This document shows positions 11,314-56,785 of a DNA stretch of 64,000 bases, one piece after another. Under the pieces are notes generated by a model, which did not search any database, was not told where the DNA came from, and worked only from the letters and a program-made list of their open reading frames with translations. Both the position numbers and the translations under genes were made by a program. The DNA comes from an uncultured Candidatus Saccharibacteria bacterium. GTDB taxonomy: Bacteria > Patescibacteriota > Minisyncoccia > Phycocordibacterales > SBAW01. The stretch's first letter is position 1. Each line of letters starts with the position of its first letter. The stretch spans positions 33,642 to 97,641 of the forward strand of contig CAYWJX010000001.1 in the NCBI GenBank assembly GCA_964459335.1, read 5' to 3'.

Positions 11314-11403
11314 GTTATTAGTTCCTGCCGCCAAAGTTTAAAAGAGTGCACTCCGGGCCGCTAGGCCAAGTCTAACCCTCTTTTAAACTTCGTCGTCATA
11401 CAC

Positions 11404-12798: not shown

Positions 12799-13818
12799 TT
12801 AGTTTGCCATGGCCTCCATACCGCCGGTAATTTCGCTCACTTCGCGCGTAATCGACGCTTGTCGCGCTTTGTTAAATTGGAGCGTAAACGAGGTCTCAAG
12901 CTCCACCGCTTTGTCCGAAGCCGACTTCATCGACACCATCCGGGCGCTGTGCTCGGAGGCTTGCGACTCGAGCAATGCATGGTAAACAAAAATAGAAGCA
13001 AGACGCGGAAGGATGGCGGCAAGCACTTCGCCCTCGGACGGTTCTATGGTGTAGTTTAGGCGGGCTGCAGTTACTATGCCTCCGCCCTCGTCATCGGATG
13101 CGCGCGTCAGCATAGTAACTGCAACCCGCTCCTGCGTGGCAGGTGACCCGCGCCTTATTTGAATATCATCCACCACCCTTTCGAGCTCGATGAGCGAGAG
13201 TGGAAAAATGACGCGCAACGTGGGGCGCTGCTCAAAGGTTGAAATAAAATTTTGATAGGCAACTTTAACGACATCAACCCCACCCTGCGCAAAGCGCGCG
13301 GCCGCTTCGTGCACGAGCTCGGCGATAAATACCGAGTCGAGCTGGTCGGTGTTGGCATGATGCAAATCAACCGCAAATCCGCGCGCCACAAAAAAATCGT
13401 TGGCTTTGCGGCCGATTGCAACAATCGAAATATGTTCTTTTGAAAGACCGCTTGCCGCAATGTCGGCAGATGTTGCGCGGAGCACCGCTGAATTTAATGC
13501 GCCAGCCAAGCCTTTGTCGGATGTGATAACAATGTAGAGCGCTTGGCGCGGAGCAGTTGCCATGATGCCGTGCGCATCCGATGACGAGGACGGCAGCGTG
13601 GCAACTGCTCCGCGCGTCAACGGATTGTTTACAAGTTCACGCGCACCCGAAACGCGCACGAGGATTGAGACGGCCGCGCGAGCGTACGCGCGGCCTGCAA
13701 AAGCCCTACTCTGTGCCTTGCGCATTTTTGCAGCCGAAACCGCCTCCATGGCTTTGGTCACCTTTTGAGTTTTTTCGATCGAACGTATTTTTGTTTTTAT
13801 TGCTTTGAGTCCTGCCAT
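12799..13818 (-). CDS. atpG: F0F1 ATP synthase subunit gamma
   Basis: The N-terminus MAGLKAIKTKIRSIEKTQKVTKAMEAVSAAKMRKAQ is the gamma signature, and the C-terminal helix ITREVSEITGGMEAMA matches too. Confidence 0.9.
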   Translation of the reverse strand: MAGLKAIKTKIRSIEKTQKVTKAMEAVSAAKMRKAQSRAFAGRAYARAAVSILVRVSGARELVNNPLTRGAVATLPSSSSDAHGIMATAPRQALYIVITSDKGLAGALNSAVLRATSADIAASGLSKEHISIVAIGRKANDFFVARGFAVDLHHANTDQLDSVFIAELVHEAAARFAQGGVDVVKVAYQNFISTFEQRPTLRVIFPLSLIELERVVDDIQIRRGSPATQERVAVTMLTRASDDEGGGIVTAARLNYTIEPSEGEVLAAILPRLASIFVYHALLESQASEHSARMVSMKSASDKAVELETSFTLQFNKARQASITREVSEITGGMEAMAN

Positions 13819-19698: not shown

Positions 19699-19901
19699 TT
19701 TTTCTTTTCCTTCCCCAATGTTCTTGTTGTCCGCTTGGCCTCATGTCAGCGGCACGGTAAAAACTTTACCACTAAATTTAGCCCTGTCCAGTTTTATTAT
19801 GAACAGACAACTTTGTGGTCACGAGTCGACTTTGCTCGTCAGCAAAGTCGCTCGCTACCCCGCCTCACTGCTACGCAAATGCGTAGCAACGTTCCGGCCT
19901 G

Positions 19902-19949
19902 CACCAAGACAAAAGAATCTGCCGCAGGGCAGATTCTTTTGTCTTGGTG
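19902..19949 (-). terminator. Long perfect hairpin at the 3' end of tRNA-Val (22-bp stem) whose right arm includes the encoded CCA end
   Basis: caccaagacaaaagaatctgcc-gcag-ggcagattcttttgtcttggtg. It lies immediately downstream of tRNA-Val on the minus strand. Confidence 0.45.
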
Positions 19950-20019
19950 CACCCTTCAGGATTCGAACCTGAGGCCTCACCCGTGTGAAGGGTGCGCTCT
20001 AACCAACTGAGCTAAGGGT
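19944..20019 (-). tRNA. tRNA-Val (anticodon CAC), CCA encoded
   Basis: The reverse complement GCACCCTTAGCTCAGTTGGTTAGAGCGCACCCTTCACACGGGTGAGGCCTCAGGTTCGAATCCTGAAGGGTGCACCA is a canonical cloverleaf. Confidence 0.85.
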
Positions 20020-24396: not shown

Positions 24397-24800
24397 TAGA
24401 TTAATACATTTAGCTATTAATCCTAGTGATGAACACAAAGCCCGCCACCAGGAGGCCTTGCGGCCCTATACAAGTTTCCCTGTATAACGTAAGTCACGCC
24501 CTGATAACGGGTTTTCTGTGACTTACGATTTTCGCCCTTACCCTAGCACTGCTAGGGGTTAGGACCTTACTCCTATTAAGTTTTTACATCTGTAATCATA
24601 CCAAACCAACCGCAAGCGTCTATAGGCATTGTTAGAAAGGCTCTATCCCGCGCTAGCTCCCTCTAAGCCTACACAGCTGTTGCTGTGTGGAGTAAGTATA
24701 CTTTTTATAGAATACACTTCTAAATGCTTAAAATGGGAGGCAATACGGTCAAACCTCTTCCGATGGATAAAAATTTCGAACGAGCGTATCATTCTTGCTA

Positions 24801-29662: not shown

Positions 29663-30976
29663 TTATAACCCCATTTCTTTGTTGCGAAGTTTCCGATGAT
29701 ACGCAATCGCAAAACGATGAGCCTCCGCGTTGGCGAGCAAGATGTCGTGTTCGTGGCCAGTGATAACTCCCCTGTCGCCTTGTATCGCCCGCGGACGATG
29801 CTTGTCGTCTTTGGTGACACCAACCACCGGTATGCGGACGCCGAACGAGGCGAGCACTTTGTCGGCGGCATTAAGCTGAGCCGCACTGCCATCAACCACA
29901 ATAATGCGGGGGCTCGGCCACTCGTTGTGCGCCAGGCGGCGCGAGAGCATCTCGCGCAAAGCTCCAATGTCGTCGCCAGCGCCTGCGGCTTTGATTTTAA
30001 ATTTGCGGTACTCGTTTTTGAGCGCCGTGCCATTTTCGACAACGGTCATCACGCCCACCATCGCACTGCCGCCCAAATGTGCCGCGTCGTAAGCCTCGAT
30101 TCGTGTCCCGCGAATCGCCCCGAGGGAAGTCGAGGGGCTACGAAATTCTTCTTTTATCAAAGAGATATCTTGGATGTGCTTAAGCGCAAATAGTTGGCTA
30201 CGTAACTTGGCCGCCTCTTCAAACCGCTCGGCTTTTGCAAGCTTTTTCATGTCGCGCTCGAGCGATTTTATCAACTCACTTTTTTTACCTTGAAAGAGCA
30301 TCACGATGCGGCGCACAATTTTGCGATACTCTGTTTTATTAATCGCGCCAGAACATACGCCAGGGCACAATCCTATCGCGGCGTTAAAACAGGCTTTGGT
30401 ATGTGGTGTACACGTATCGCGGTACGGAAATATCTTTCGGATAATTTTTAAAGCTTCTTTGAGTTGCGCGCCGTGTGGAAATGGACCAAATGTATGAGCA
30501 GCAGGAAAAGCTCGCGGCTGTTTATGCACGAGCGCAGAAAAATCCTGCGTCTGCTCACCTTGGCAGCTCGCAGCGTGAGCCGCCACAGAATTTTTCTGCG
30601 CTAATTCCTTTCCTCTCACTAACAACACTCTTGGAAAATCCTCTTTAGTAACAACTACGTAGTTCCACGATTTGTCGTCTTTTAAATCGGTGTTGTGTTT
30701 GGGTTTGTGGCGCTTAATTAAATTGGCCTCGAGTATCAACGCCTCCAAAACCGAGTCGGTTGCACGCCACTCGATGCTCGCGGCTTTTTTAACCATCTCG
30801 ACAATGAGCGGCCCGCGCGAGCGGTGGAGGTCGGCGGCAAAGTAGCTGCGCACGCGGCTGCGCAAGCTGGTGGCTTTGCCGATGTACAAGATTTTTTTAC
30901 GCGCATCCAAAAAAAAGTACACACCCGGCCCATCGGGCAAAGTACTCATCCGTTTTTTAAACTGCTCAAGCGTCAT
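29663..30976 (-). CDS. uvrC: Excinuclease ABC subunit C (short form lacking the C-terminal (HhH)2 domain), with an in-frame element of about 23 aa
   Basis: The N-terminal GIY-YIG domain (GPGVYFFLDARKKILYIGKATSLRSRV) and the RNase H-like endonuclease domain (IEAYDAAHLGGS) are present. The inserted peptide is VAAHAASCQGEQTQDFSALV. Confidence 0.9.
   Translation of the reverse strand: MTLEQFKKRMSTLPDGPGVYFFLDARKKILYIGKATSLRSRVRSYFAADLHRSRGPLIVEMVKKAASIEWRATDSVLEALILEANLIKRHKPKHNTDLKDDKSWNYVVVTKEDFPRVLLVRGKELAQKNSVAAHAASCQGEQTQDFSALVHKQPRAFPAAHTFGPFPHGAQLKEALKIIRKIFPYRDTCTPHTKACFNAAIGLCPGVCSGAINKTEYRKIVRRIVMLFQGKKSELIKSLERDMKKLAKAERFEEAAKLRSQLFALKHIQDISLIKEEFRSPSTSLGAIRGTRIEAYDAAHLGGSAMVGVMTVVENGTALKNEYRKFKIKAAGAGDDIGALREMLSRRLAHNEWPSPRIIVVDGSAAQLNAADKVLASFGVRIPVVGVTKDDKHRPRAIQGDRGVITGHEHDILLANAEAHRFAIAYHRKLRNKEMGL
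30532..30601. repeat. Hairpin element copy A (core variant 1) inside uvrC
   Basis: The inverted repeat gcgcagaaaaat / atttttctgcgc flanks the core tgctcaccttggcagctcgcagcgtgagc. The uvrC reading frame is preserved through it. Confidence 0.7.
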
Positions 30977-33842: not shown

Positions 33843-36014
33843 TCAAGCTTTTGTCTTTTTTGATTTTTTTGCAGATGCGCCGCCCATTAAGGCCGCTATT
33901 TCGTCTCTTAGGATGGCGGCAGTTTCGAAGTCGAGGTTTTTAACGGCTTCGGCCATGTCGCGCTTTTTTTGCGCAATAAAGCTGCGCGGATTCTTTTTGT
34001 ACTCGCCCTGCTCTATCTCGAGCATCTCGTGCACTGCCTTGCCGTGCTCGGTGCGCAACTCGTCGGTAATGTCTCGTATTGCTTTGTGGATTGAGACCGG
34101 CGTGATGTGATGCTCTTTGTTGTACGCAACTTGCACCGCGCGGCGGCGGTTGGTCTCGCCTATCGCTTTTTTAAGCGAGTCGGTTTCTTGGTCGGCATAG
34201 AGTATCACGCGACCCTCAATGTTGCGCGCGGCGCGGCCGATGGTTTGTATCAGCGACGTTTCGGAGCGTAAAAATCCTTCTTTGTCGGCGTCGAGTATCG
34301 CCACCAACTGCACCTCGGGCAAGTCGAGCCCTTCGCGCAAAAGATTGACGCCCACGAGCACGTCATAGGCGCCCTTGCGCAAGTCGGTGAGCGTCGTGAT
34401 ACGGTCCAACGTTTCGATATCGCTGTGCAAATAGGCCGCTTTAATCTGCCTATCTTTTAAATAGTCGGCCAAATCCTCAGCCATTTTTTTGGTGAGTGTC
34501 GTGACCATCACGCGCCCGCCATTTTTAATCACCTTTTCAGCCTCATTTAAAAAGTCTTGCACTTGGCCTAGAGAAGGCCGATTCTGTGAGCGCTGCGAGC
34601 TGCCAAGGGGAGCAGAATCGGCCTTCTCTAGGCTTTCAACTGGCAATGAAGAAACCTGCTGATACTCACCTTGGCAGCTCGCAGCGTGAGTCTCATCAGG
34701 TTTCTTCATCGCTCCTCCCGTGACCGGTCGCACAATAATCTCCGGGTCAATCAAGCCGGTGGGCCTAATGATTTGCTCGACCACTTTGGTGGAGTGCGCT
34801 TTTTCATACGCGCCCGGCGTGGCGCTGGTGTAGATGGTCTGCCCCACATTTTTTTCGAACTCATCAAACATGAGCGGGCGGTTGTCGACAGCCGACGGCA
34901 GGCGGAATCCAAAGTCGACTAAATTTTCTTTACGCGCTCTGTCGCCTGCATACATGCCGCCAAGTTGCGGCACGGTGACATGGCTCTCGTCGATGATTGT
35001 CAAAAAGTCGGGCGTGCCATCGGCCTTGTGCGGGAAGTAGTCGAGCAAGGTAAACGGCGGTTGGCCGGGGCTCCGGCCGTCAAAATGCCACGAGTAATTC
35101 TCTATCCCGTTGCAATAGCCAATCTCGCGTATCATCGCGAGGTCGTAGGTGGTGCGGCGTTTTAAACGCTCGGCCTCAAGTAACTTGCCAGCGCGTTCAA
35201 ACTTTTTTAACTGTTCTTTAAGCTCAAGTTTAATATCCTCCACCGCTCGCGCGCGCTCGTCCTCGGGCGTCACATAATGTTTTGCCGGGAAAAGAAATAG
35301 CGACGCCTTTGGCTCAAGCTCGGCGCGCGTTATAGCATCAATCACGCGCACTTTCTCAATAAAATCTCCGTTGAACTCTACGCGATACAGCACGCGTTCG
35401 CCTGTCGGCATTATCTCAACGCTGTTGCCGAGTGCACGAAACGTACCCGGCGTTACATCGGCCGTCGTGCGCGTAAAATATACGCCAATGAGATCGCGGA
35501 TGAGCTCGGCGCGATTTTTTTTGACGCCTGCGGCAAGCTCGAGATGCACTTTGCGATATTGCTCGGGCGAGCCCAAACCATAAATACACGAAACGCTTGC
35601 TACAATTATTACATCACTACGGCTAAGCAGAGCCTGTGTTGAGGCATGGCGGAGCCTGTCAATCTCTTCGTTTATCTGCGCTTCCTTCTCGATATAGGTG
35701 TCGCTCGTGGGGATGTACGCCTCGGGCTGATAATAGTCGTAATACGAAACAAAATATTGCACGGATGCGTCGGGGAAAAACTCTCGATACTCCTGCGCGA
35801 GCTGAGCCGCGAGCGTTTTGTTGTGTGCAATCACGAGCGTAGGCTTTTGCGTTTGCGCAATAACATTGGCCACGGTAAAAGTCTTGCCCGAGCCGGTAAC
35901 ACCGAGTAAAGTTTGATGCCGCTCTCCACTCTTTAGCCCTGCCACGAGCTCGGTAATGGCCTTGGGCTGGTCGCCCGCCGGCTGATAAGGTGATTTGAGT
36001 TTAAACGTTGCCAT
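33843..36014 (-). CDS. uvrB: Excinuclease ABC subunit B, with an in-frame insertion of about 47 aa made of two hairpin elements
   Basis: The helicase motif GVTGSGKTF and the UvrB-specific domains are present throughout. The segment KKPDETHAASCQGEYQQVSSLPVESLEKADSAPLGSSQRSQNRPSLG replaces the short loop between VRPV and QVQDFLNEAEK. Confidence 0.95.
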   Translation of the reverse strand: MATFKLKSPYQPAGDQPKAITELVAGLKSGERHQTLLGVTGSGKTFTVANVIAQTQKPTLVIAHNKTLAAQLAQEYREFFPDASVQYFVSYYDYYQPEAYIPTSDTYIEKEAQINEEIDRLRHASTQALLSRSDVIIVASVSCIYGLGSPEQYRKVHLELAAGVKKNRAELIRDLIGVYFTRTTADVTPGTFRALGNSVEIMPTGERVLYRVEFNGDFIEKVRVIDAITRAELEPKASLFLFPAKHYVTPEDERARAVEDIKLELKEQLKKFERAGKLLEAERLKRRTTYDLAMIREIGYCNGIENYSWHFDGRSPGQPPFTLLDYFPHKADGTPDFLTIIDESHVTVPQLGGMYAGDRARKENLVDFGFRLPSAVDNRPLMFDEFEKNVGQTIYTSATPGAYEKAHSTKVVEQIIRPTGLIDPEIIVRPVTGGAMKKPDETHAASCQGEYQQVSSLPVESLEKADSAPLGSSQRSQNRPSLGQVQDFLNEAEKVIKNGGRVMVTTLTKKMAEDLADYLKDRQIKAAYLHSDIETLDRITTLTDLRKGAYDVLVGVNLLREGLDLPEVQLVAILDADKEGFLRSETSLIQTIGRAARNIEGRVILYADQETDSLKKAIGETNRRRAVQVAYNKEHHITPVSIHKAIRDITDELRTEHGKAVHEMLEIEQGEYKKNPRSFIAQKKRDMAEAVKNLDFETAAILRDEIAALMGGASAKKSKKTKA
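34568..34631. repeat. Hairpin element copy B (core variant 2, opposite orientation) inside uvrB
   Basis: The inverted repeat ctagagaaggccgattctg / cagaatcggccttctctag flanks tgagcgctgcgagctgccaaggggag. Confidence 0.7.
34646..34709. repeat. Hairpin element copy C (core variant 1) inside uvrB, 14 nt from copy B
   Basis: The inverted repeat atgaagaaacctg / caggtttcttcat flanks ctgatactcaccttggcagctcgcagcgtgagtctcat. Confidence 0.7.
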
Positions 36015-36019
36015 CCAAT

Positions 36020-36703
36020 TTACTGTACCGCATTTCGTTCAAACTTGGGAGTTAAACTCCCAAGTAGCCATTGCATTTCCTTTTCTTGCTTTTTACGCTC
36101 AACAATCATTTCTAGAGCTTCATTAGCAAATTTTTTATACGCATCTGGACTCTCAAACTGTCCTAAAATAACTTCCTTTTCGCATATAGATCCCATATGA
36201 CCCAATTCTGAGTCCATATATTCCGTCCAGCTTGAAGCACTGAGCTTGGGAGTTAAGCTCCCAAGCTGGTTATTAAGATTTACATAAACGCTTGTGTGCA
36301 AAAGCTGCTCGTTTGATTCGACATGAACAGATTTATACGTGCCTTGGAATAGGCCGCCGGACCTTGAGTATTTTTCATTGAAATAGTTGGTGTAACCGGT
36401 TCCAAGCCTCTGCATAAATTTTTGAATTCCTTTTTCGGACGTTTGCTTCAAAAGCAAATGAAAATGATTTGGGTTAAGACAATAACACACCACATCAACC
36501 AATTTGGGAGTTAAACTCCCAAGTTGTGTTTCTTTTTGGAAGCGATGTTCAAACAAGCTGCCAATAGGATTAGGCAAATTAAATGCTTGGATACTCTCTA
36601 AAAATCTGCTCAGATCATCTGCGTCTGAGAATATGTCGCGTTTTTCGACGCCACGATTAAACACGTGGTAAAATTCCCCTTGCTCTAAAACTATCGGTCT
36701 CAT
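36020..36703 (-). CDS. IS200/IS605-family HUH (Y1) transposase / REP-associated tyrosine transposase-like
   Basis: GEFYHVFNRGVEKRDIF, the HUH motif NHFHLLL, and the catalytic-Tyr region GTYKSVHVESNEQLLHTSVYVNLNN are present. The ATG start is at MRPIVLEQ. The ORF-track TTG start at 36739 lies inside palindrome P4. The ORF carries three in-frame palindrome copies, each translated LGSLTPK. Confidence 0.75.
   Translation of the reverse strand: MRPIVLEQGEFYHVFNRGVEKRDIFSDADDLSRFLESIQAFNLPNPIGSLFEHRFQKETQLGSLTPKLVDVVCYCLNPNHFHLLLKQTSEKGIQKFMQRLGTGYTNYFNEKYSRSGGLFQGTYKSVHVESNEQLLHTSVYVNLNNQLGSLTPKLSASSWTEYMDSELGHMGSICEKEVILGQFESPDAYKKFANEALEMIVERKKQEKEMQWLLGSLTPKFERNAVQ
36043..36065. repeat. Palindrome P1 (acttgggagttaaactcccaagt)
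   Basis: Perfect palindrome at the 3' end of the transposase CDS. Confidence 0.8.
36243..36267. repeat. Palindrome P2 (agcttgggag-ttaag-ctcccaagct)
   Basis: 10-bp arms. Internal to the CDS and translated QLGSLTPKL. Confidence 0.8.
36501..36525. repeat. Palindrome P3 (aatttgggagttaaactcccaagtt)
   Basis: Imperfect, with one mismatch. Internal to the CDS. Confidence 0.7.
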
Positions 36704-36716
36704 GGCCGCGACTATA

Positions 36717-36743
36717 CCACTTGGGAGTTGAACTCCCAAGTGG
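36717..36743. repeat. Palindrome P4 (ccacttgggagtt-g-aactcccaagtgg)
   Basis: 13-bp perfect arms, immediately upstream of the transposase ATG. Confidence 0.8.
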
Positions 36744-37997
36744 TTAGCGAAATTTATACTGCTCTAAAAAATCGTTTTTAAATTGTGAAAAAGTGCCGTT
36801 TAAAATACTTTCGCGGGCTTGCTCACACAGGCGCGTCAAAAAACGGATGTTGTGCTGGCTCGCGAGGATTTGCCCCAGCATTTCGTGCGTCCGAAAAAGA
36901 TGGTGCACGTAGGCGCGGGTGTGATGCGTGCACACGATGCAATCGCACTCTTTGTCTATCGGGCCAAAGTCGCTTATATACTCCGCATTGGGTATCTGTA
37001 TCTTCCCTTTTGTTGTAAACAACCCGCCGTTGCGGCCGTTGCGCGTGGGGATGACACAATCAAAGGTGTCGACGCCATACTCGATGCCGAGCAAAATATC
37101 CGCGGGCTCGCCAACGCCGAGCCCATGCACCGGTATGTCCTCCGGCAACTCGGCAAGCATCGCAAGCGCCGACTCGAGCGAGTGTTCGCCGTATTTTTTA
37201 CTAAATGAGCCGCCGAGCCCAAAGCCGTCAAAGCCCATCTCGCCGATGGTTTGCGCACTCTTAAGGCGCAAGTCGTCAAACTGACCGCCTTGCGCGATGC
37301 CGTATATCATTTGCTTTTTATTTGCCTCAAAATTTTGACGGTGAGCGGCGAGACTCCGTTTGGCCCACGCATGTGTGCGCTCCATTGCTTCTTTTTGAAA
37401 CTCATAGGTGGCGGTGGGCGCGGTGCATTGGTCAAACGCAAAAAAGATATCCGCGCCAAGCTTGTGTTGTATCTCGACCGAGCGCTCGGGCGTAAAGCGA
37501 TGGAGCGAGCCGTCGATATGCGAAGTAAACGTAACACCGTCGTCGTCGATAATGGCGAGCTTGCCGTGGCTGGTCGCAAGTTCTTCGTCCCAAAAAGCCG
37601 GAAGAGGAAGTGAAGCTGGAGGAGGAGTTGCCGTCTGCTCACCTTGGCAGCTCGCAGCGTGAGCATCCAACAACTCCTCCTCCGGTTCCGGTTTTGAGAA
37701 TTTTGATATCTTCTTTCCAAATCCTTCTCCCAATGAAAATACTTGAAAGCCACCCGAGTCGGTCATGATGGGGCCGTCAAATCCCATAAACTTGTGGATA
37801 CCGCCCGCTTGGGCTATCAACTCCTCGCCCGGCGATAAATATAAATGATATGTGTTGGCAATGACCGTTTGCACGCCGAGCGCGCCAAATTGCGTTACAT
37901 CGACGCCTTTAACATCGGCTTTGGTAGCCACGGCAACAAACGCCGGCGTGTTGATGTCACCGTGCGGCGTATGTATTACTCTGGCTCTCGCTCGCAT
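36744..37997 (-). CDS. tgt: Queuine tRNA-ribosyltransferase, with an in-frame hairpin-element insertion
   Basis: The N-terminus IHTPHGDINTPAFVAVATKADVKGV and the zinc site CDCIVCTHHTRAYVHHLF are present. The inserted segment is ...EEELLDAHAASCQGEQTATPPPASLP... Confidence 0.9.
   Translation of the reverse strand: MRARARVIHTPHGDINTPAFVAVATKADVKGVDVTQFGALGVQTVIANTYHLYLSPGEELIAQAGGIHKFMGFDGPIMTDSGGFQVFSLGEGFGKKISKFSKPEPEEELLDAHAASCQGEQTATPPPASLPLPAFWDEELATSHGKLAIIDDDGVTFTSHIDGSLHRFTPERSVEIQHKLGADIFFAFDQCTAPTATYEFQKEAMERTHAWAKRSLAAHRQNFEANKKQMIYGIAQGGQFDDLRLKSAQTIGEMGFDGFGLGGSFSKKYGEHSLESALAMLAELPEDIPVHGLGVGEPADILLGIEYGVDTFDCVIPTRNGRNGGLFTTKGKIQIPNAEYISDFGPIDKECDCIVCTHHTRAYVHHLFRTHEMLGQILASQHNIRFLTRLCEQARESILNGTFSQFKNDFLEQYKFR
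37618..37683. repeat. Hairpin element copy D (core variant 1) inside tgt
   Basis: The inverted repeat ggaggaggagttg / caactcctcctcc flanks ccgtctgctcaccttggcagctcgcagcgtgagcatc. It is 66 nt long and frame-preserving. Confidence 0.7.
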
Positions 37998-41220: not shown

Positions 41221-41235
41221 TACTCAAAGTATTTA

Positions 41236-41340
41236 GCGCGCAACTAAAAAAGAAAAAGCCAGGCGGGGGCGTGCCGCTTTTTAAGGAGCGAAGCGACTAT
41301 AAAAAGTGGGGTTAAAGCTTTTTCTTTTTTAGTTGCGCGC
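41236..41340. repeat. Large inverted repeat (24-bp perfect arms, about 57-nt spacer) between convergent genes; a bidirectional terminator or structured RNA
   Basis: Arms gcgcgcaactaaaaaagaaaaagc and gctttttcttttttagttgcgcgc. Confidence 0.5.
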
Positions 41341-41772
41341 TATTCTCCAATGCCAAAGCGCTATCCCAAACAGCACCAGCGTTGTCACGGCCGAAAGGCC
41401 GCAATAGAGGCACAGCGCGTGTATCACGATATATTGAAACAGCTCAAAACAAATCGAGCACACAAGGCCGATTGTTGCATACGCGAGCACATAAAGGCGG
41501 AGCTTTTGTGAGAGCGGTTTTATAGCAAGAAACGTAGCAAGTCCGAGCATGTATATATAGTAGAAGAGTCCGATGTAGGCAAAAGGCACGCCAAACGGCG
41601 TGGCATAAGGGCTGGAGAGCACAATCTCGCATCCACCGACGGCACAGGTGGGTATGATGCCAAGGAGGTGATAATACGAAAGATACAGCGTGTCACCCAA
41701 GCCAATAAAGGTGGCTGCAATGAGCCAAAAAGGCGTGAGCAAAACTTTTTCAACCGCATTTTGTGGAGGCAT
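41329..41772 (-). CDS. Vitamin K epoxide reductase (VKOR) family membrane protein
   Basis: Polytopic, with CAVGGC and the TM CxxC site (LCLYCGLSA). It lies adjacent to msrA. Confidence 0.6.
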   Translation of the reverse strand: MPPQNAVEKVLLTPFWLIAATFIGLGDTLYLSYYHLLGIIPTCAVGGCEIVLSSPYATPFGVPFAYIGLFYYIYMLGLATFLAIKPLSQKLRLYVLAYATIGLVCSICFELFQYIVIHALCLYCGLSAVTTLVLFGIALWHWRIARN

Positions 41773-42677: not shown

Positions 42678-43868
42678 TTATTTTAGATATTTTTTATTTT
42701 TTAATTTGTCGGGCAAATAGCTTTCTTTGTCGTACATTTTATAGCCTTTGTGGTAGCCGATATCCTTCATCAACTTTGTCGGTGCGTTACGCACCTTCAT
42801 GGGGATTGCCAGATTGCCGAGCTTTTTAACATCGTCAGCCGCCTCAAAATACGCGTCATATGAACGGCGCGATTTTTTGCACTGAGCCAGGTAGGCAACG
42901 CCGTGCGCGAGGTTGATGGCGCACTCCGGATAGCCAATGGTTTCGCACGCGCGAAAGACCGCGTTGGCAACAACGAGCGCGGTGGGCACCGCGAGCCCCA
43001 CATCCTCGCTCGCAAACACCACCATGCGCCGCGCGATAAACAGCGGGTCCTCCCCTGCTTCGACCATGCGCGCAAGATAGTAGAGCGCCGCGTCGGGCTG
43101 TGATGCGCGCATGCTTTTAATAAACGCACTGATGGTGTTGTAGTGCTCCTCGCCCATTTTGTCGTAGCGCAGATGTTGGGATTGTATGGACCGCTTGAGC
43201 GTGTCGACATTTATTGTGCCATAAAACATATGCGCGTTTTCGATAGCGTTGAGTGCCTGTCGCGCATCGCCTTGTGCAAACGCCACAAGCCAGTTGCGCG
43301 CGTCTTTGGGGACTTTCATTTTTGTATGCACGATTATTTTTTCTATCTCCTTTTCGCTCAGCTCATTGAGCACAAACACGCGGCAGCGCGAGAGGAGCGC
43401 ACCAATCACTTCAAAGCTCGGATTCTCGGTCGTGGCACCCACCAAAGTTAAATCGCCGCGCTCGACAAACGGTAACAAAAAATCCTGTTGCGCTTTATTA
43501 AACCGGTGGATTTCGTCGATGAACAAAACTTTGGGACGGGTAGCAACCGTGCTGGTAGCAAACGGTAGACTCACGCCTAGCGGCCCGGAGCGCCGTTTGT
43601 CTCCGGCACGGTTGCTACCCAACACATTTTTAATATCGTCCTTGCCTGCATCAACCGCCGAAAGCTCATAAAAATCGGCGTTGAGCGCGTTGGCGTAGAT
43701 ACGCGCAAGGGTTGTTTTGCCGCTCCCTGGTGGTCCCCACAAGATAAAAGAAAAAAGATGTTTGCCCTCGATAGCCTCGCGCAAAGGCTTGCCTTTTCCT
43801 ACCAGATGCTCCTGCCCCACAAACTCATCCAAGCTTTTGGGGCGGATTTTGTTCGCCAAAGGCTCCAT
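42678..43868 (-). CDS. rarA: Replication-associated recombination protein A (AAA ATPase, MgsA/WRNIP family)
   Basis: Walker A GPPGSGKTTLA, Walker B LFIDEIHRFNKAQQD, and a MgsA C-terminal domain. Confidence 0.9.
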   Translation of the reverse strand: MEPLANKIRPKSLDEFVGQEHLVGKGKPLREAIEGKHLFSFILWGPPGSGKTTLARIYANALNADFYELSAVDAGKDDIKNVLGSNRAGDKRRSGPLGVSLPFATSTVATRPKVLFIDEIHRFNKAQQDFLLPFVERGDLTLVGATTENPSFEVIGALLSRCRVFVLNELSEKEIEKIIVHTKMKVPKDARNWLVAFAQGDARQALNAIENAHMFYGTINVDTLKRSIQSQHLRYDKMGEEHYNTISAFIKSMRASQPDAALYYLARMVEAGEDPLFIARRMVVFASEDVGLAVPTALVVANAVFRACETIGYPECAINLAHGVAYLAQCKKSRRSYDAYFEAADDVKKLGNLAIPMKVRNAPTKLMKDIGYHKGYKMYDKESYLPDKLKNKKYLK

Positions 43869-51767: not shown

Positions 51768-52205
51768 ATGCTTCATCCTGTTGTTGTTTTAATTCATTTA
51801 ATGGCACTCGCAGTTGCCGGGTGCGGCGTACTTGTCGCCGACAAAGTAGGCCTTTCGTGGATACGCGGTAAAACGCGCATGCTCTCGCGCCGCACCCTGC
51901 ACATCCTGCACAAAACAATCTCGTATGCGCTTGCCACGCTCATTTTGAGCGGCCTCTATCTTTTTTGGCCTGTACGCGATTATCTGTTGCACCAAAATCT
52001 GTTTTTGTTAAAAATGTTTTTTGTTGCGGTACTCGTTATCAACTCACTAGTGATCGACAGGCTCATGTTGGTGGCAACTAAAGTGCCGTTTACGATGATA
52101 AGCGGCAAAGGCAAAGTGGTGCTCCTTATGAGCGGGGCAATTTCTTTTATCTGCTGGACTGGAGCGTTCATTGCCGCAGTACTCCTCTTTTTCTTTGGAC
52201 TATAA
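51768..52205 (+). CDS. Hypothetical membrane protein (145 aa)
   Basis: Four predicted TM helices. Confidence 0.4.
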   Translation: MLHPVVVLIHLMALAVAGCGVLVADKVGLSWIRGKTRMLSRRTLHILHKTISYALATLILSGLYLFWPVRDYLLHQNLFLLKMFFVAVLVINSLVIDRLMLVATKVPFTMISGKGKVVLLMSGAISFICWTGAFIAAVLLFFFGL

Positions 52206-52298
52206 AAATCAGCAAAAATAATGTCCAGAGAGGGTTAGACTGGGGGCTCGGCCCGGAGCGCGCTCTCGGGAGATTATTTTGCGGGGTTTTTATGTTGC

Positions 52299-52372
52299 TA
52301 GAAAAGCAAAAGTTTAATTTTGCTCCCCTTGGCAGCTCGCAGCGCTCCCAAAATTAAACTTTTGCTTTTCTA
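52299..52372. repeat. Hairpin element copy E (core variant 2), intergenic
   Basis: A perfect 24-bp inverted repeat tagaaaagcaaaagtttaattttg / caaaattaaacttttgcttttcta flanks ctccccttggcagctcgcagcgctcc. The right arm supplies the stop codon of the MBL gene. Confidence 0.75.
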
Positions 52373-56677: not shown

Positions 56678-56693
56678 AGGTTTGTTAGTATAT

Positions 56694-56767
56694 CAAAAAA
56701 ACAGAAATTTGATTTTGTGAGCGCTGCGAGCTGCCAAGGGGAGCAAAATTAAACTTTTGTTTTTTTG
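56694..56767. repeat. Hairpin element copy F (core variant 2, opposite orientation to E), intergenic
   Basis: The inverted repeat caaaaaaacagaaatttgattttg / caaaattaaacttttgtttttttg (3 mismatches) flanks tgagcgctgcgagctgccaaggggag. The arms are related to those of copy E. Confidence 0.7.
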
Positions 56768-56785
56768 AAAACTCAGCATGTTCTT

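Follow-up and report, generated by a model that had tools for sequence, protein, structure and literature searches.

The DNA analysed here (the window, meaning the whole stretch of 64,000 nt) contains a uvrB ORF in which two adjoining hairpins occupy positions 34566-34712, each formed around the exact 18-mer CCTTGGCAGCTCGCAGCG and with the two 18-mers in opposite orientations (Table 1). Copy B has 21-nt arms (34566-34586 and 34613-34633) that are 100% complementary, and its 26-nt loop, CTCCCCTTGGCAGCTCGCAGCGCTCA, contains the core on the minus strand at 34591-34608. Copy C has 27-nt arms (34643-34669 and 34686-34712) that are 89% complementary around a 16-nt centre; the core of this copy lies on the plus strand at 34669-34686 in the form CTCAC-core-GTGAG. 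The two cores lie 60 nt apart and each forms the apex of its own hairpin. When folded as single-stranded DNA, a 167-nt stretch adopts two separate hairpins with a free energy of -55.3 kcal/mol (z = -9.9 relative to shuffles). The initial annotation had described copy B as an inverted variant 2 and copy C as a variant 1, with which the sequence agrees. Its description of two oppositely oriented elements 14 nt apart holds as far as the two inverted copies are concerned, but the gap is 9 nt by the hairpin boundaries; this difference depends on where the hairpin ends are drawn.

Table 1. Genes, hairpin copies and other features of the window
Feature	Position in window	Strand	Remarks
uvrB (host gene)	33843-36014	minus	ORF, 723 aa; all UvrB Pfam domains present
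Copy B, variant 2	34566-34633	minus	covariance model R1, 86.6 bits
Spacer between hairpins B and C	34634-34642		9 nt; part of codons P-V-E
Copy C, variant 1	34643-34712	plus	covariance model R1, 46.1 bits
UvrB extra loop, predicted disordered	34575-34715 (residues 434-480)		AlphaFold and structure alignment
Y1_Tnp gene (IS200-like / RAYT-like)	36020-36700, with palindromes to 36741	minus	between uvrB and tgt
Variant 1 copy in frame in uvrC (29663-30976, minus)	30531-30602	plus	...KNSVAAHAASCQGEQTQDFSAL...
Variant 1 copy in frame in tgt (36744-37997, minus)	37618-37683	plus	...PEEELLDAHAASCQGEQTATPPP...
Variant 2 intergenic copy	52299-52372	plus	convergent ORFs either side; perfect 24-bp arms
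Variant 2 intergenic copy	56693-56768	minus	convergent ORFs either side

The uvrB reading frame is uninterrupted across both elements, with copy B reading ...SLEKADSAPLGSSQRSQNRPSLG and copy C AMKKPDETHAASCQGEYQQVSSL, and the protein retains every UvrB domain recognised by Pfam. Solved UvrB structures match residues 2-433 and 480-710, and these solved proteins do not have the extra residues that lie between the two portions. This alignment gap coincides with a low-confidence loop in the AlphaFold model, where pLDDT falls below 50 (to about 30) over exactly residues 434-480 and where the loop is flanked by a confidently modelled strand (425-429) and helix (484-497). The prediction for the insert is a disordered loop of 47 residues where the C-terminal RecA-like domain begins. 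Structure alignment and model thus agree with the earlier suggestion that some 47 residues were added in frame to a loop of which canonical UvrB has only a short version; the model places them at the beginning of the C-terminal RecA-like domain and not, as had been proposed, between helicase domain 2 and the UvrC-binding region. Note that UvrB, which had been called an essential helicase, is non-essential in most bacteria. The predicted peptide of the insert region also includes ...KKPDETHAASCQGEYQQVSSLPVESLEK.

A dispersed repeat inside and between genes

Six exact copies of the 18-mer are present in the window against an expectation of 0.04, a count reached in 0 of 100 shuffles. Of these, uvrB contains two, uvrC and tgt have one each and two lie at intergenic sites; an unfiltered covariance model scan of the window returned the same six copies and zero decayed ones. 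Exact matches of 18-26 nt link the uvrB copies to those in uvrC, tgt and the intergenic regions. The two intergenic copies are 87% identical to each other, with the identity confined to the 78-nt element. The six exact cores, including those in uvrC and tgt, confirm that the uvrB segments are members of a dispersed repeat that is read through in frame. The density of this family is about 1 per 10 kb, and the window also has several other hairpin families that are built alike but unrelated. A search of the whole window against Rfam 15 at the gathering threshold matched only LOOT RNA and tRNAs, and a permissive Rfam search with two copies matched only hairpin models of the microRNA-precursor type, far below thresholds.

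About 55 further distinct hairpin copies are found in MAGs and metagenome contigs of Patescibacteria, in relatives labelled Paceibacterota, Minisyncoccia or Adlerbacteria. This distribution is best explained by a family that is specific to one clade of Patescibacteria. Clear in-gene copies occur in UvrB, UvrC, RecG, Tgt, TsaD and ArgS, three of these six host proteins being encoded by DNA-repair genes, and a single codon phase is common to the copies in UvrB (two), UvrC, RecG (two), Tgt, TsaD and ArgS. By an ORF-based classification 24 of 58 copies lie inside ORFs, a few of these probably being 5' leaders. The intergenic copies lie mostly 3' of genes: neighbouring genes are convergent in 13 cases, tandem in 17 and divergent in 1, such that the spacer holds a gene's 3' end for 30 of the 31 classifiable intergenic copies.

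In many pairs, the two copies have unrelated flanks yet arms that match at all but 3-8 of 48 positions (for example L058/L069, L047/L049 and the window copy at 52327 versus L076). Near-identical copies are thus dispersed to unrelated flanks, and the element spreads as a unit of arms plus centre. We considered whether the arms are made from the target by inverted duplication, and rejected this because arms are common to copies with unrelated flanks, a family arm consensus exists, and short UvrB alleles have neither arm. Among the flanks of the approximately 55 copies there is no consistent target-site duplication or conserved target motif. Conserved terminal inverted repeats were likewise not found in the family; the element ends are its least conserved part, with termini that loosely follow AG[CA]AAAAG...CTTTT[GT]CT. 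Core matches in viral contigs were discounted as chance (n = 2, both stemless). Matches in non-Patescibacteria genomes were set aside as well, about 24 of 35 being lone 18-mers that have no hairpin and lie in GC-rich genomes; for a collection of this size we estimate that some 17 would be expected by chance.

Conserved centres, covarying arms and turnover among relatives

Elements measure approximately 66-78 nt with inverted-repeat arms of 20-29 bp. Their centre, CTTGGCAGCTCGCAGC, is invariant and non-palindromic, whereas the outer arms vary between copies and yet remain Watson-Crick complementary. As most copies outside the window were retrieved by an exact-core search, the invariance of the centre is partly built in. 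The arms were analysed in 40 variant-2 copies: pairing holds in 94.3% of cells, and of the 24 pairs 19 show changes on both sides. Double-change cells number 202 in this set as compared to about 4 one-sided (G-U) changes, values that shuffle and slide controls come nowhere near. The same pattern is observed in locus L036, which was found via its UvrB protein: 6 arm positions of hairpin B differ from the window, each of them compensated, and the loops of B and C match at all 52 nucleotides. Whichever way the copies are transcribed, their arms are rich in A on the 5' side and in T on the 3' side.

The centre is also unchanged between orthologous copies with flank identities of only 60-75%, in coding and non-coding sites and in either orientation. 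A purely selfish element is not expected to keep its centre locus by locus, so this conservation at individual loci suggests selection at the level of the host, gene conversion or repeated re-insertion. In L079 the centre is intact while the arms have decayed. Furthermore, the orientation of the centre differs between orthologues. In one pair, window copy C and L079, arm markers favour inversion of the whole element (25 of 28 versus 21 of 28). At tsaD, the arms of L060 and L054 are alike at 25 of 28 and 26 of 28 positions, or have one mismatch per arm in another alignment, next to a downstream flank with an identity of only about 80%.

Of the 120 closest UvrBs, the doublet is present in one and a single copy in two, and many have 4-8 residues at this loop. 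Others of this set carry unrelated inserts at the same loop, at least one of which is palindromic, and there are UvrB relatives at 82-84% identity without an insert. P0003 and P0015/L079 have one copy only at the uvrB site. The uninserted allele that the initial annotation proposed to look for does exist among relatives, the closest short form being RPVTG-GASQLG-QVQDF (P0005/L037). The RPVTG-to-QVQDF interval covers 50 residues in the window UvrB, a net gain of 44 relative to this allele. Tgt shows the same turnover pattern as UvrB, with insert states that differ among relatives. The neighbourhood is mosaic: a comparison of the window with L036 gives 93% identity for UvrB but only about 69% for Tgt. 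As a separate observation, KPEEEPPSAPLPVFF is a possible arms-only allele of Tgt.

Interpretation of the uvrB insert

We consider it probable (roughly 0.6) that the uvrB segment represents two separate, adjacent insertions, one of each variant, of a non-autonomous palindromic mobile element. The anatomy, copy number, in-frame read-through, dispersal, arm covariation and gain and loss among relatives are direct observations; the mechanism that follows is our proposal. The element would spread as arms plus centre and then persist only at low-harm sites, either 3' of genes or in permissive protein surface loops. In-gene copies would be kept in the single codon phase that is free of stops and gives a hydrophilic peptide (LGSSQR or AASCQG, depending on the orientation), and the uvrB copies would be translated into the disordered 47-residue loop. 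After insertion the arms would drift, with template switching within the palindrome restoring Watson-Crick complementarity. The centre would stay constant as the recognition site, on the extruded single-stranded hairpin, of a protein that mobilises or maintains the element, for which an HUH/Y1-type enzyme is the most evident candidate.

Template switching between inverted repeats homogenises arms and inverts the spacer (PMC8604942, PMC8794818, PMC13100816). Repeats maintained in this way share arm homogenisation, compensated double substitutions and spacer inversion with the uvrB element (PMC8604942, PMC8794818), but template switching is a mutational process and not an element, and it leaves the dispersal and the invariant centre unexplained. 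In regard to known elements, in-frame palindromic elements within genes (RPEs) are known from Rickettsia (PMC10969869). Like the uvrB element, RPEs belong to a bacterium with a reduced genome and are short palindromic repeats with many in-frame insertions in unrelated housekeeping ORFs, which are read through as fold-compatible extra peptide and which also occur between genes (PMC10969869). The uvrB family likewise is a multi-copy palindromic repeat that lies in frame and stop-free in unrelated ORFs, and in the UvrB model its insertion site is predicted to be a fold-compatible surface loop. RPEs, however, are about 100-150 bp long with full-length sequence and peptide conserved, whereas the uvrB element measures 66-78 nt, has only an asymmetric centre that is invariant, has arms that covary freely and shows its centre in either orientation at orthologous positions. 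The host phyla also differ, and the likeness is one of kind; given the differences in phylum and length, sequence homology to RPEs is unlikely. MITEs (Correia/NEMIS, ERIC, BOX, RUP) are similarly small non-autonomous inverted repeats that are sometimes fused to ORFs in frame, but MITEs are defined by two features that derive from a parent IS, conserved terminal inverted repeats and target-site duplications, and no consistent sign of these was seen at the ends and flanks of the approximately 55 copies.

The alternative that comes closest is a host-maintained DNA signal for uptake, recombination or a nucleoid protein, with the hairpin as a scaffold and with selection or biased gene conversion as the conserving force. 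We regard this as improbable. It would account for a centre that stays unchanged across diverged flanks, in coding and non-coding sites and in either orientation, and that outlasts its arms in L079; the near-identical tsaD arms next to a diverged flank, the mosaic neighbourhood seen in the comparison with L036 and the presence of DNA-repair genes among the hosts (3 of 6) are also consistent with it. However, 6 of 6 window cores have arms and none occurs alone, unlike known uptake sequences, which weakens an uptake role. The density of the family is low for a signal, many close relatives lack the element or have an unrelated insert at the same loop, and the co-occurrence of several unrelated hairpin families with this architecture is a better fit to mobile families.

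A more specific suggestion was that the head-to-head pair is a REPIN, mobilised as one unit by a RAYT transposase, possibly by the product of the Y1 gene 1.3 kb away. In a REPIN two REPs pair with each other across a variable spacer, the REPs being imperfect palindromes at the ends (PMC3337134). Copies B and C do have inverted cores and can pair mutually over 37 nt at 78%, and a second inverted doublet of the same geometry and similar spacing (72 nt) is present in RecG of L041. REP/REPIN-RAYT systems also resemble the family in being short dispersed hairpins, mostly 3' of genes, that persist at orthologous positions in genomes encoding Y1 (IS200-like) transposase homologues. Nonetheless, the stems of the individual hairpins are better (100% and 89% versus 78% core to core), the minimum-energy fold consists of two hairpins and not one, and B and C differ in both variant and arms. 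The anatomy is also the reverse of that of a REPIN, as the conserved part is a non-palindromic apex in the middle and the variable parts are the outer arms, and with nearly half of the copies in genes (24 of 58 by the ORF-based count) the family is not "predominantly extragenic". The single-copy alleles in P0003 and P0015/L079 indicate that the uvrB doublet arose by two events and not as one unit, and at least 50 copies elsewhere are singletons. Since the orientation of the centre differs between orthologues, an inverted pair would result by chance half the time.

The neighbouring Y1 gene does not change this. Its protein is weakly similar to the NCBIfam REP-associated tyrosine transposase (E = 1e-4, below cut-off), and some of its homologues are named RayT by JGI. 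However, this gene, which is the window's only Y1 gene, is not flanked by uvrB-element sequence; another palindrome, CTTGGGAGTTnAACTCCCAAG, lies on its flanks and within it, with four copies (at 36042, 36243, 36501 and 36718) that within the window are confined to the Y1 gene. The element motif is carried by none of 120 Y1 homologues, and the Y1 gene is absent from the matching position in L036 and in the P0003 contig. A tblastn search of the Y1 protein against all retrieved loci matched the window alone, and a PDB sequence search with this protein found no relative. The uvrB doublet is thus not supported as a REPIN, and mobilisation as one RAYT-dependent unit appears very unlikely.

Slightly less probable again is an RNA-level element, such as a terminator, an mRNA stabiliser or a translational pause site. 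The high stability of the hairpins and the 3'-end location of 30 of 31 classifiable intergenic copies would suit this role, and so would arms that are A-rich 5' and T-rich 3' in both transcription directions. Against this, G-U pairs are virtually absent among the 202 compensated cells, and Rfam gives no match beyond generic hairpin models far below thresholds. In addition, the centre changes its orientation relative to the gene between orthologues, so that the RNA loop would be the complement, and copies within coding sequences are in frame and stop-free and so are read through. Finally, an ancestral lineage-specific expansion of the UvrB loop at the protein level, unrelated to the other copies, agrees with the variable length of this loop across Patescibacteria but is refuted, leaving it next to no credence, by exact 18-26-nt nucleotide identity to copies in the unrelated uvrC and tgt genes and between genes, as well as by the different peptides from the two orientations and by relatives at 82-84% identity without an insert.

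Returning to the preferred reading of two insertions of a mobile element, a constant apex with free arms, together with an apex that is kept at orthologous loci, points to an uncharacterised recognition mechanism, for which the Y1 family is a candidate. A broader and more speculative proposal, which we hold to be unlikely, is that Patescibacteria have a class of hairpins, comprising several families, that is defined by an invariant asymmetric apex held constant by an activity acting in trans, such as an HUH/Y1 nuclease. Such a nuclease might recognise or nick the loop of the extruded hairpin, leading to site-specific reinsertion or inversion; the class would make repeated use of loops in UvrB, UvrC, RecG, Tgt, TsaD, ArgS, ATP synthase gamma and MgsA, and the system would include the Y1 family, whose coding sequence has covarying hairpins of its own. 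If true, this would be a transposition or maintenance mechanism based on the apex that is not described for REP, RPE or MITE elements. In-frame palindromic mobile DNA in essential-type genes was previously a Rickettsia curiosity, and its occurrence in the candidate phyla radiation, in several families and at recurrent loops, suggests a general consequence of small genomes densely packed with genes. Palindromic inserts may drive real length variation of Patescibacteria proteins, and they are liable to be misread as lineage-specific protein domains or as MAG assembly errors. A resemblance of the core to a sigma-54 site or a LexA box, judged by eye, was rejected as the spacing does not fit and the intragenic site speaks against an operator.

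Two hairpins in uvrB and their family

The initial annotation had described two opposed repeat copies in uvrB, and these are real since both could be located in the sequence as hairpins, together covering window positions 34566-34712 within the ORF. Their loop and arm sequences also confirm the variant labels it gave to copy B (variant 2) and copy C (variant 1). Specifically, copy B has a 26-nt loop (CTCCCCTTGGCAGCTCGCAGCGCTCA, minus-strand reading), while copy C carries CTTGGCAGCTCGCAGC (plus strand) with CTCAC/GTGAG at the inner ends of its arms. Folding the uvrB stretch as single-stranded DNA yielded two independent hairpins (-55.3 kcal/mol, z = -9.9). The 18-mer core common to both copies, CCTTGGCAGCTCGCAGCG, has six mismatch-free occurrences in the window where 0.04 are expected, and a structure-aware search of the window found no decayed copies.

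Features of the window
Feature	Position	Strand	Details
uvrB, complete	33843-36014	minus	domains ResIII, UvrB_inter, Helicase_C, UvrB, UVR
Copy B arms	34566-34586 / 34613-34633		21 nt, perfect
Copy C arms	34643-34669 / 34686-34712		27 nt, 89% complementary
Family-1 copy	30531-30602		in uvrC
Family-1 copy	37618-37683		in tgt
Family-1 copy	52299-52372		spacer of convergent ORFs
Family-1 copy	56693-56768		spacer of convergent ORFs
Y1_Tnp gene	36020-36700	minus	Y1_Tnp domain
CTTGGGAGTTnAACTCCCAAG, 4 copies	36020-36741	minus	at Y1_Tnp gene
Second-family copy	43538-43620		in frame in MgsA/RarA (AAA+ ATPase) ORF 42678-43868, minus
Second-family copy	11326-11398		intergenic
Second-family copy	52202-52293		intergenic, directly adjoins family-1 copy at 52299
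ATP synthase gamma subunit gene	12799-13818	minus	ORF
Hairpins in gamma subunit gene	13054-13129, 13546-13621		in frame; arms 33 nt, loops 4 nt
Perfect 24-bp hairpin	19900-19951		4-nt loop, abuts tRNA-Val
Perfect 26-bp inverted repeat	41234-41342		57-nt centre
LOOT RNA (Rfam RF03000)	24453-24565	minus	71.9 bits, above gathering score

Public genomes and metagenomes were searched with the core, and Patescibacteria contigs yielded about 55 distinct copies, every one of them long-armed; the remaining matches are chance 18-mers of GC-rich genomes. That no core in the window lacks arms weakens the reading of the sequence as a DNA-uptake-type signal. Copies within genes (UvrB, UvrC, RecG, Tgt, TsaD and ArgS) are always in a single phase, encoding LGSSQR forward and AASCQG in reverse, with the RecG copies forming a further inverted doublet. 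Intergenic copies lie in convergent (13), tandem (17) or divergent (1) spacers. Many copy pairs have nearly identical arms and unrelated flanks, and the intergenic window copies at 52299 and 56693 are alike over the element only, so arms and centre move together. The flanks of the roughly 55 copies showed neither a target-site duplication nor sharply conserved termini, Rfam holds no matching family, and viral contigs gave no real element copies.

The best-supported reading is that of a small non-autonomous palindromic mobile element, which permissive loops tolerate as an in-frame insert. Among described phenomena, the Rickettsia palindromic elements come closest, and full-text literature searches turned up no account of elements of this kind from Patescibacteria. 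In principle this is ordinary, selfish palindromic DNA that is read through in a loop; what is unusual is the reversed conservation pattern, the way several families repeatedly occupy the same protein loops, and the changes in orientation.

The insertion site in UvrB

Residues 2-433 and 480-710 of UvrB align with solved UvrB structures, with nothing aligned between. In an AlphaFold model built from 48 homologues, residues 434-480 have a pLDDT of ~30 and no secondary structure, and are flanked by a strand (425-429, IIVRP) and a helix (484-497), both modelled with confidence. The insert is thus predicted to be a disordered loop of ~47 residues where the C-terminal RecA-like domain begins, ahead of the Helicase_C match (residues 495-598). 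The proposal that the extra residues fill a loop therefore held, but the UvrC-binding region, which the initial annotation had raised as a possible neighbour, is not adjacent.

Among the 120 closest UvrBs, the best of which are labelled Paceibacterota, Minisyncoccia or Adlerbacteria (the window organism is a Patescibacterium), the loop between RPVTG and QVQDF is highly variable. For example, P0001 (93% identical) has the doublet as in the window, and P0003 and P0015 (85% and 82%) carry one variant-1 copy, oriented the other way (HLGSSQRE). The short-loop relatives that were sought also exist, with only GASQLG in P0005 and GASQLS in P0009. Many have 4-8 loop residues; still others have unrelated inserts, and the only such insert inspected as DNA (L078) is another small palindrome. 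This variation among close UvrBs, which includes single-copy and short alleles, argues for a young doublet built by two events. Note that the loop codons of the P0005 allele (locus L037), GGAGCTTCGCAGCTAGGC, match the element core GGCAGCTCGCAGC at 13/15 positions, and instead of a naive site this allele may be a deletion scar, left when the hairpin arms were lost.

The insert loops of UvrB and Tgt relatives (P0001-P0120 and P0121-P0240) hold several other recurring peptides (GPSL..AKGRSL, EQNGL..RGPF.KK, RRDE.DPNSS, (A)GLQGDxSE.D and LRASTLA.KESS). Some are common to both proteins, suggesting further mobile families.

Arms, centre and orientation

Forty variant-2 copies, aligned without gaps over 24 arm pairs, are essentially invariant in the central 38 nt (6-bp stem plus 26-nt loop) and variable in the 18 outer pairs. 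Pairing is kept in 94.3% of cells, 19 pairs show both-sided change, and 202 compensated cells stand against ~4 one-sided changes, far above shuffle and slide controls. G-U pairs are nearly absent, indicating that complementarity acts at the DNA level and not through RNA-fold selection. In the uvrB of L036, a relative found via its protein and not via the core, hairpin B differs from the window at six arm positions, all exactly compensated, and hairpin C shows two compensated changes and one G-T; the loop nucleotides are identical (52/52), and the flanks show 88-92% identity. Orthologous pairs further apart have an intact centre between arms whose divergence is close to that of the adjoining coding sequence (60-80%); this is partly by construction because these copies came from the core search. 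The 120 Tgt proteins, a less biased sample, contain 11 intact motifs, four that share the variant AASGQG and a small number of degenerate motifs, and the arm peptides of motif-bearing inserts are very different. A trans-acting protein that recognises the centre, gene conversion or a host-level function may each account for its constancy.

At orthologous sites the centre occurs in both directions. The window uvrC centre is flipped relative to relatives L061 and L027, as is the tsaD centre of L060 relative to L054. In this tsaD pair the two arms are almost the same (25/28 and 26/28; direct alignment shows a single mismatch in each) and the downstream flank is only ~80% identical. In published work, template switching between inverted-repeat arms makes the arms uniform and flips the spacer (PMC8604942, PMC8794818, PMC13100816), which would account for both perfect arms and centre flips. 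The comparison of copy C with L079, however, speaks for inversion of the whole element on its arm-asymmetry markers (25/28 vs 21/28), and L079 has decayed arms around an intact centre; the two states may thus stem from separate insertions, or from excision followed by reinsertion at that site. The centre flips, together with the lack of G-U pairs, make action at the RNA level unlikely.

The Y1 gene and other palindromes

The initial annotation had viewed the uvrB pair as a REPIN-like inverted doublet, with the geometry of elements that RAYTs mobilise. The family-1 element differs from REPINs in that its conserved part is the apex, its core is non-palindromic, each copy folds alone, most copies are singletons, and single-copy alleles exist at the uvrB site itself; anatomically it is thus not a REPIN. 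The adjacent Y1_Tnp gene, which weakly matches a REP-associated tyrosine transposase model, plausibly encodes a mobilising enzyme of the right kind. No link between this gene and the element was found, and its own palindrome is different, so that RAYT mobilisation was not borne out.

That palindrome lies once just upstream of the Y1 start, twice in frame within the coding sequence (QLGSLTPKL) and once in the C-terminal tail. A heptapeptide it encodes, LG[SG]x[TA][PS]K, recurs at the same 2-3 positions in ~70% of the best 120 Y1 homologues, whose taxonomic labels, where given, are all Patescibacteria. Within one protein, the variable residues of the heptapeptide covary from copy to copy (FGSRTPK/FGSRTPK, LGSSASK/LGSSASK), pointing to conserved, co-evolving hairpins within the transposase family's own genes. 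Compared with L036 (2972-2990) and the P0003 contig, where the tgt-uvrB gap is 9-17 nt, the Y1 gene is present in the window lineage only. Window and L036 are 93% identical in UvrB and only ~69% in Tgt, suggesting a mosaic neighbourhood with its junction at the Y1 gene.

A second family shares the architecture of family 1: its loop (GGTTAGACT...GCCTAGCGGCCCGGAG) is conserved and its long arms vary. The two related hairpins in the ATP synthase gamma subunit gene belong to a palindromic family distinct from the uvrB element.
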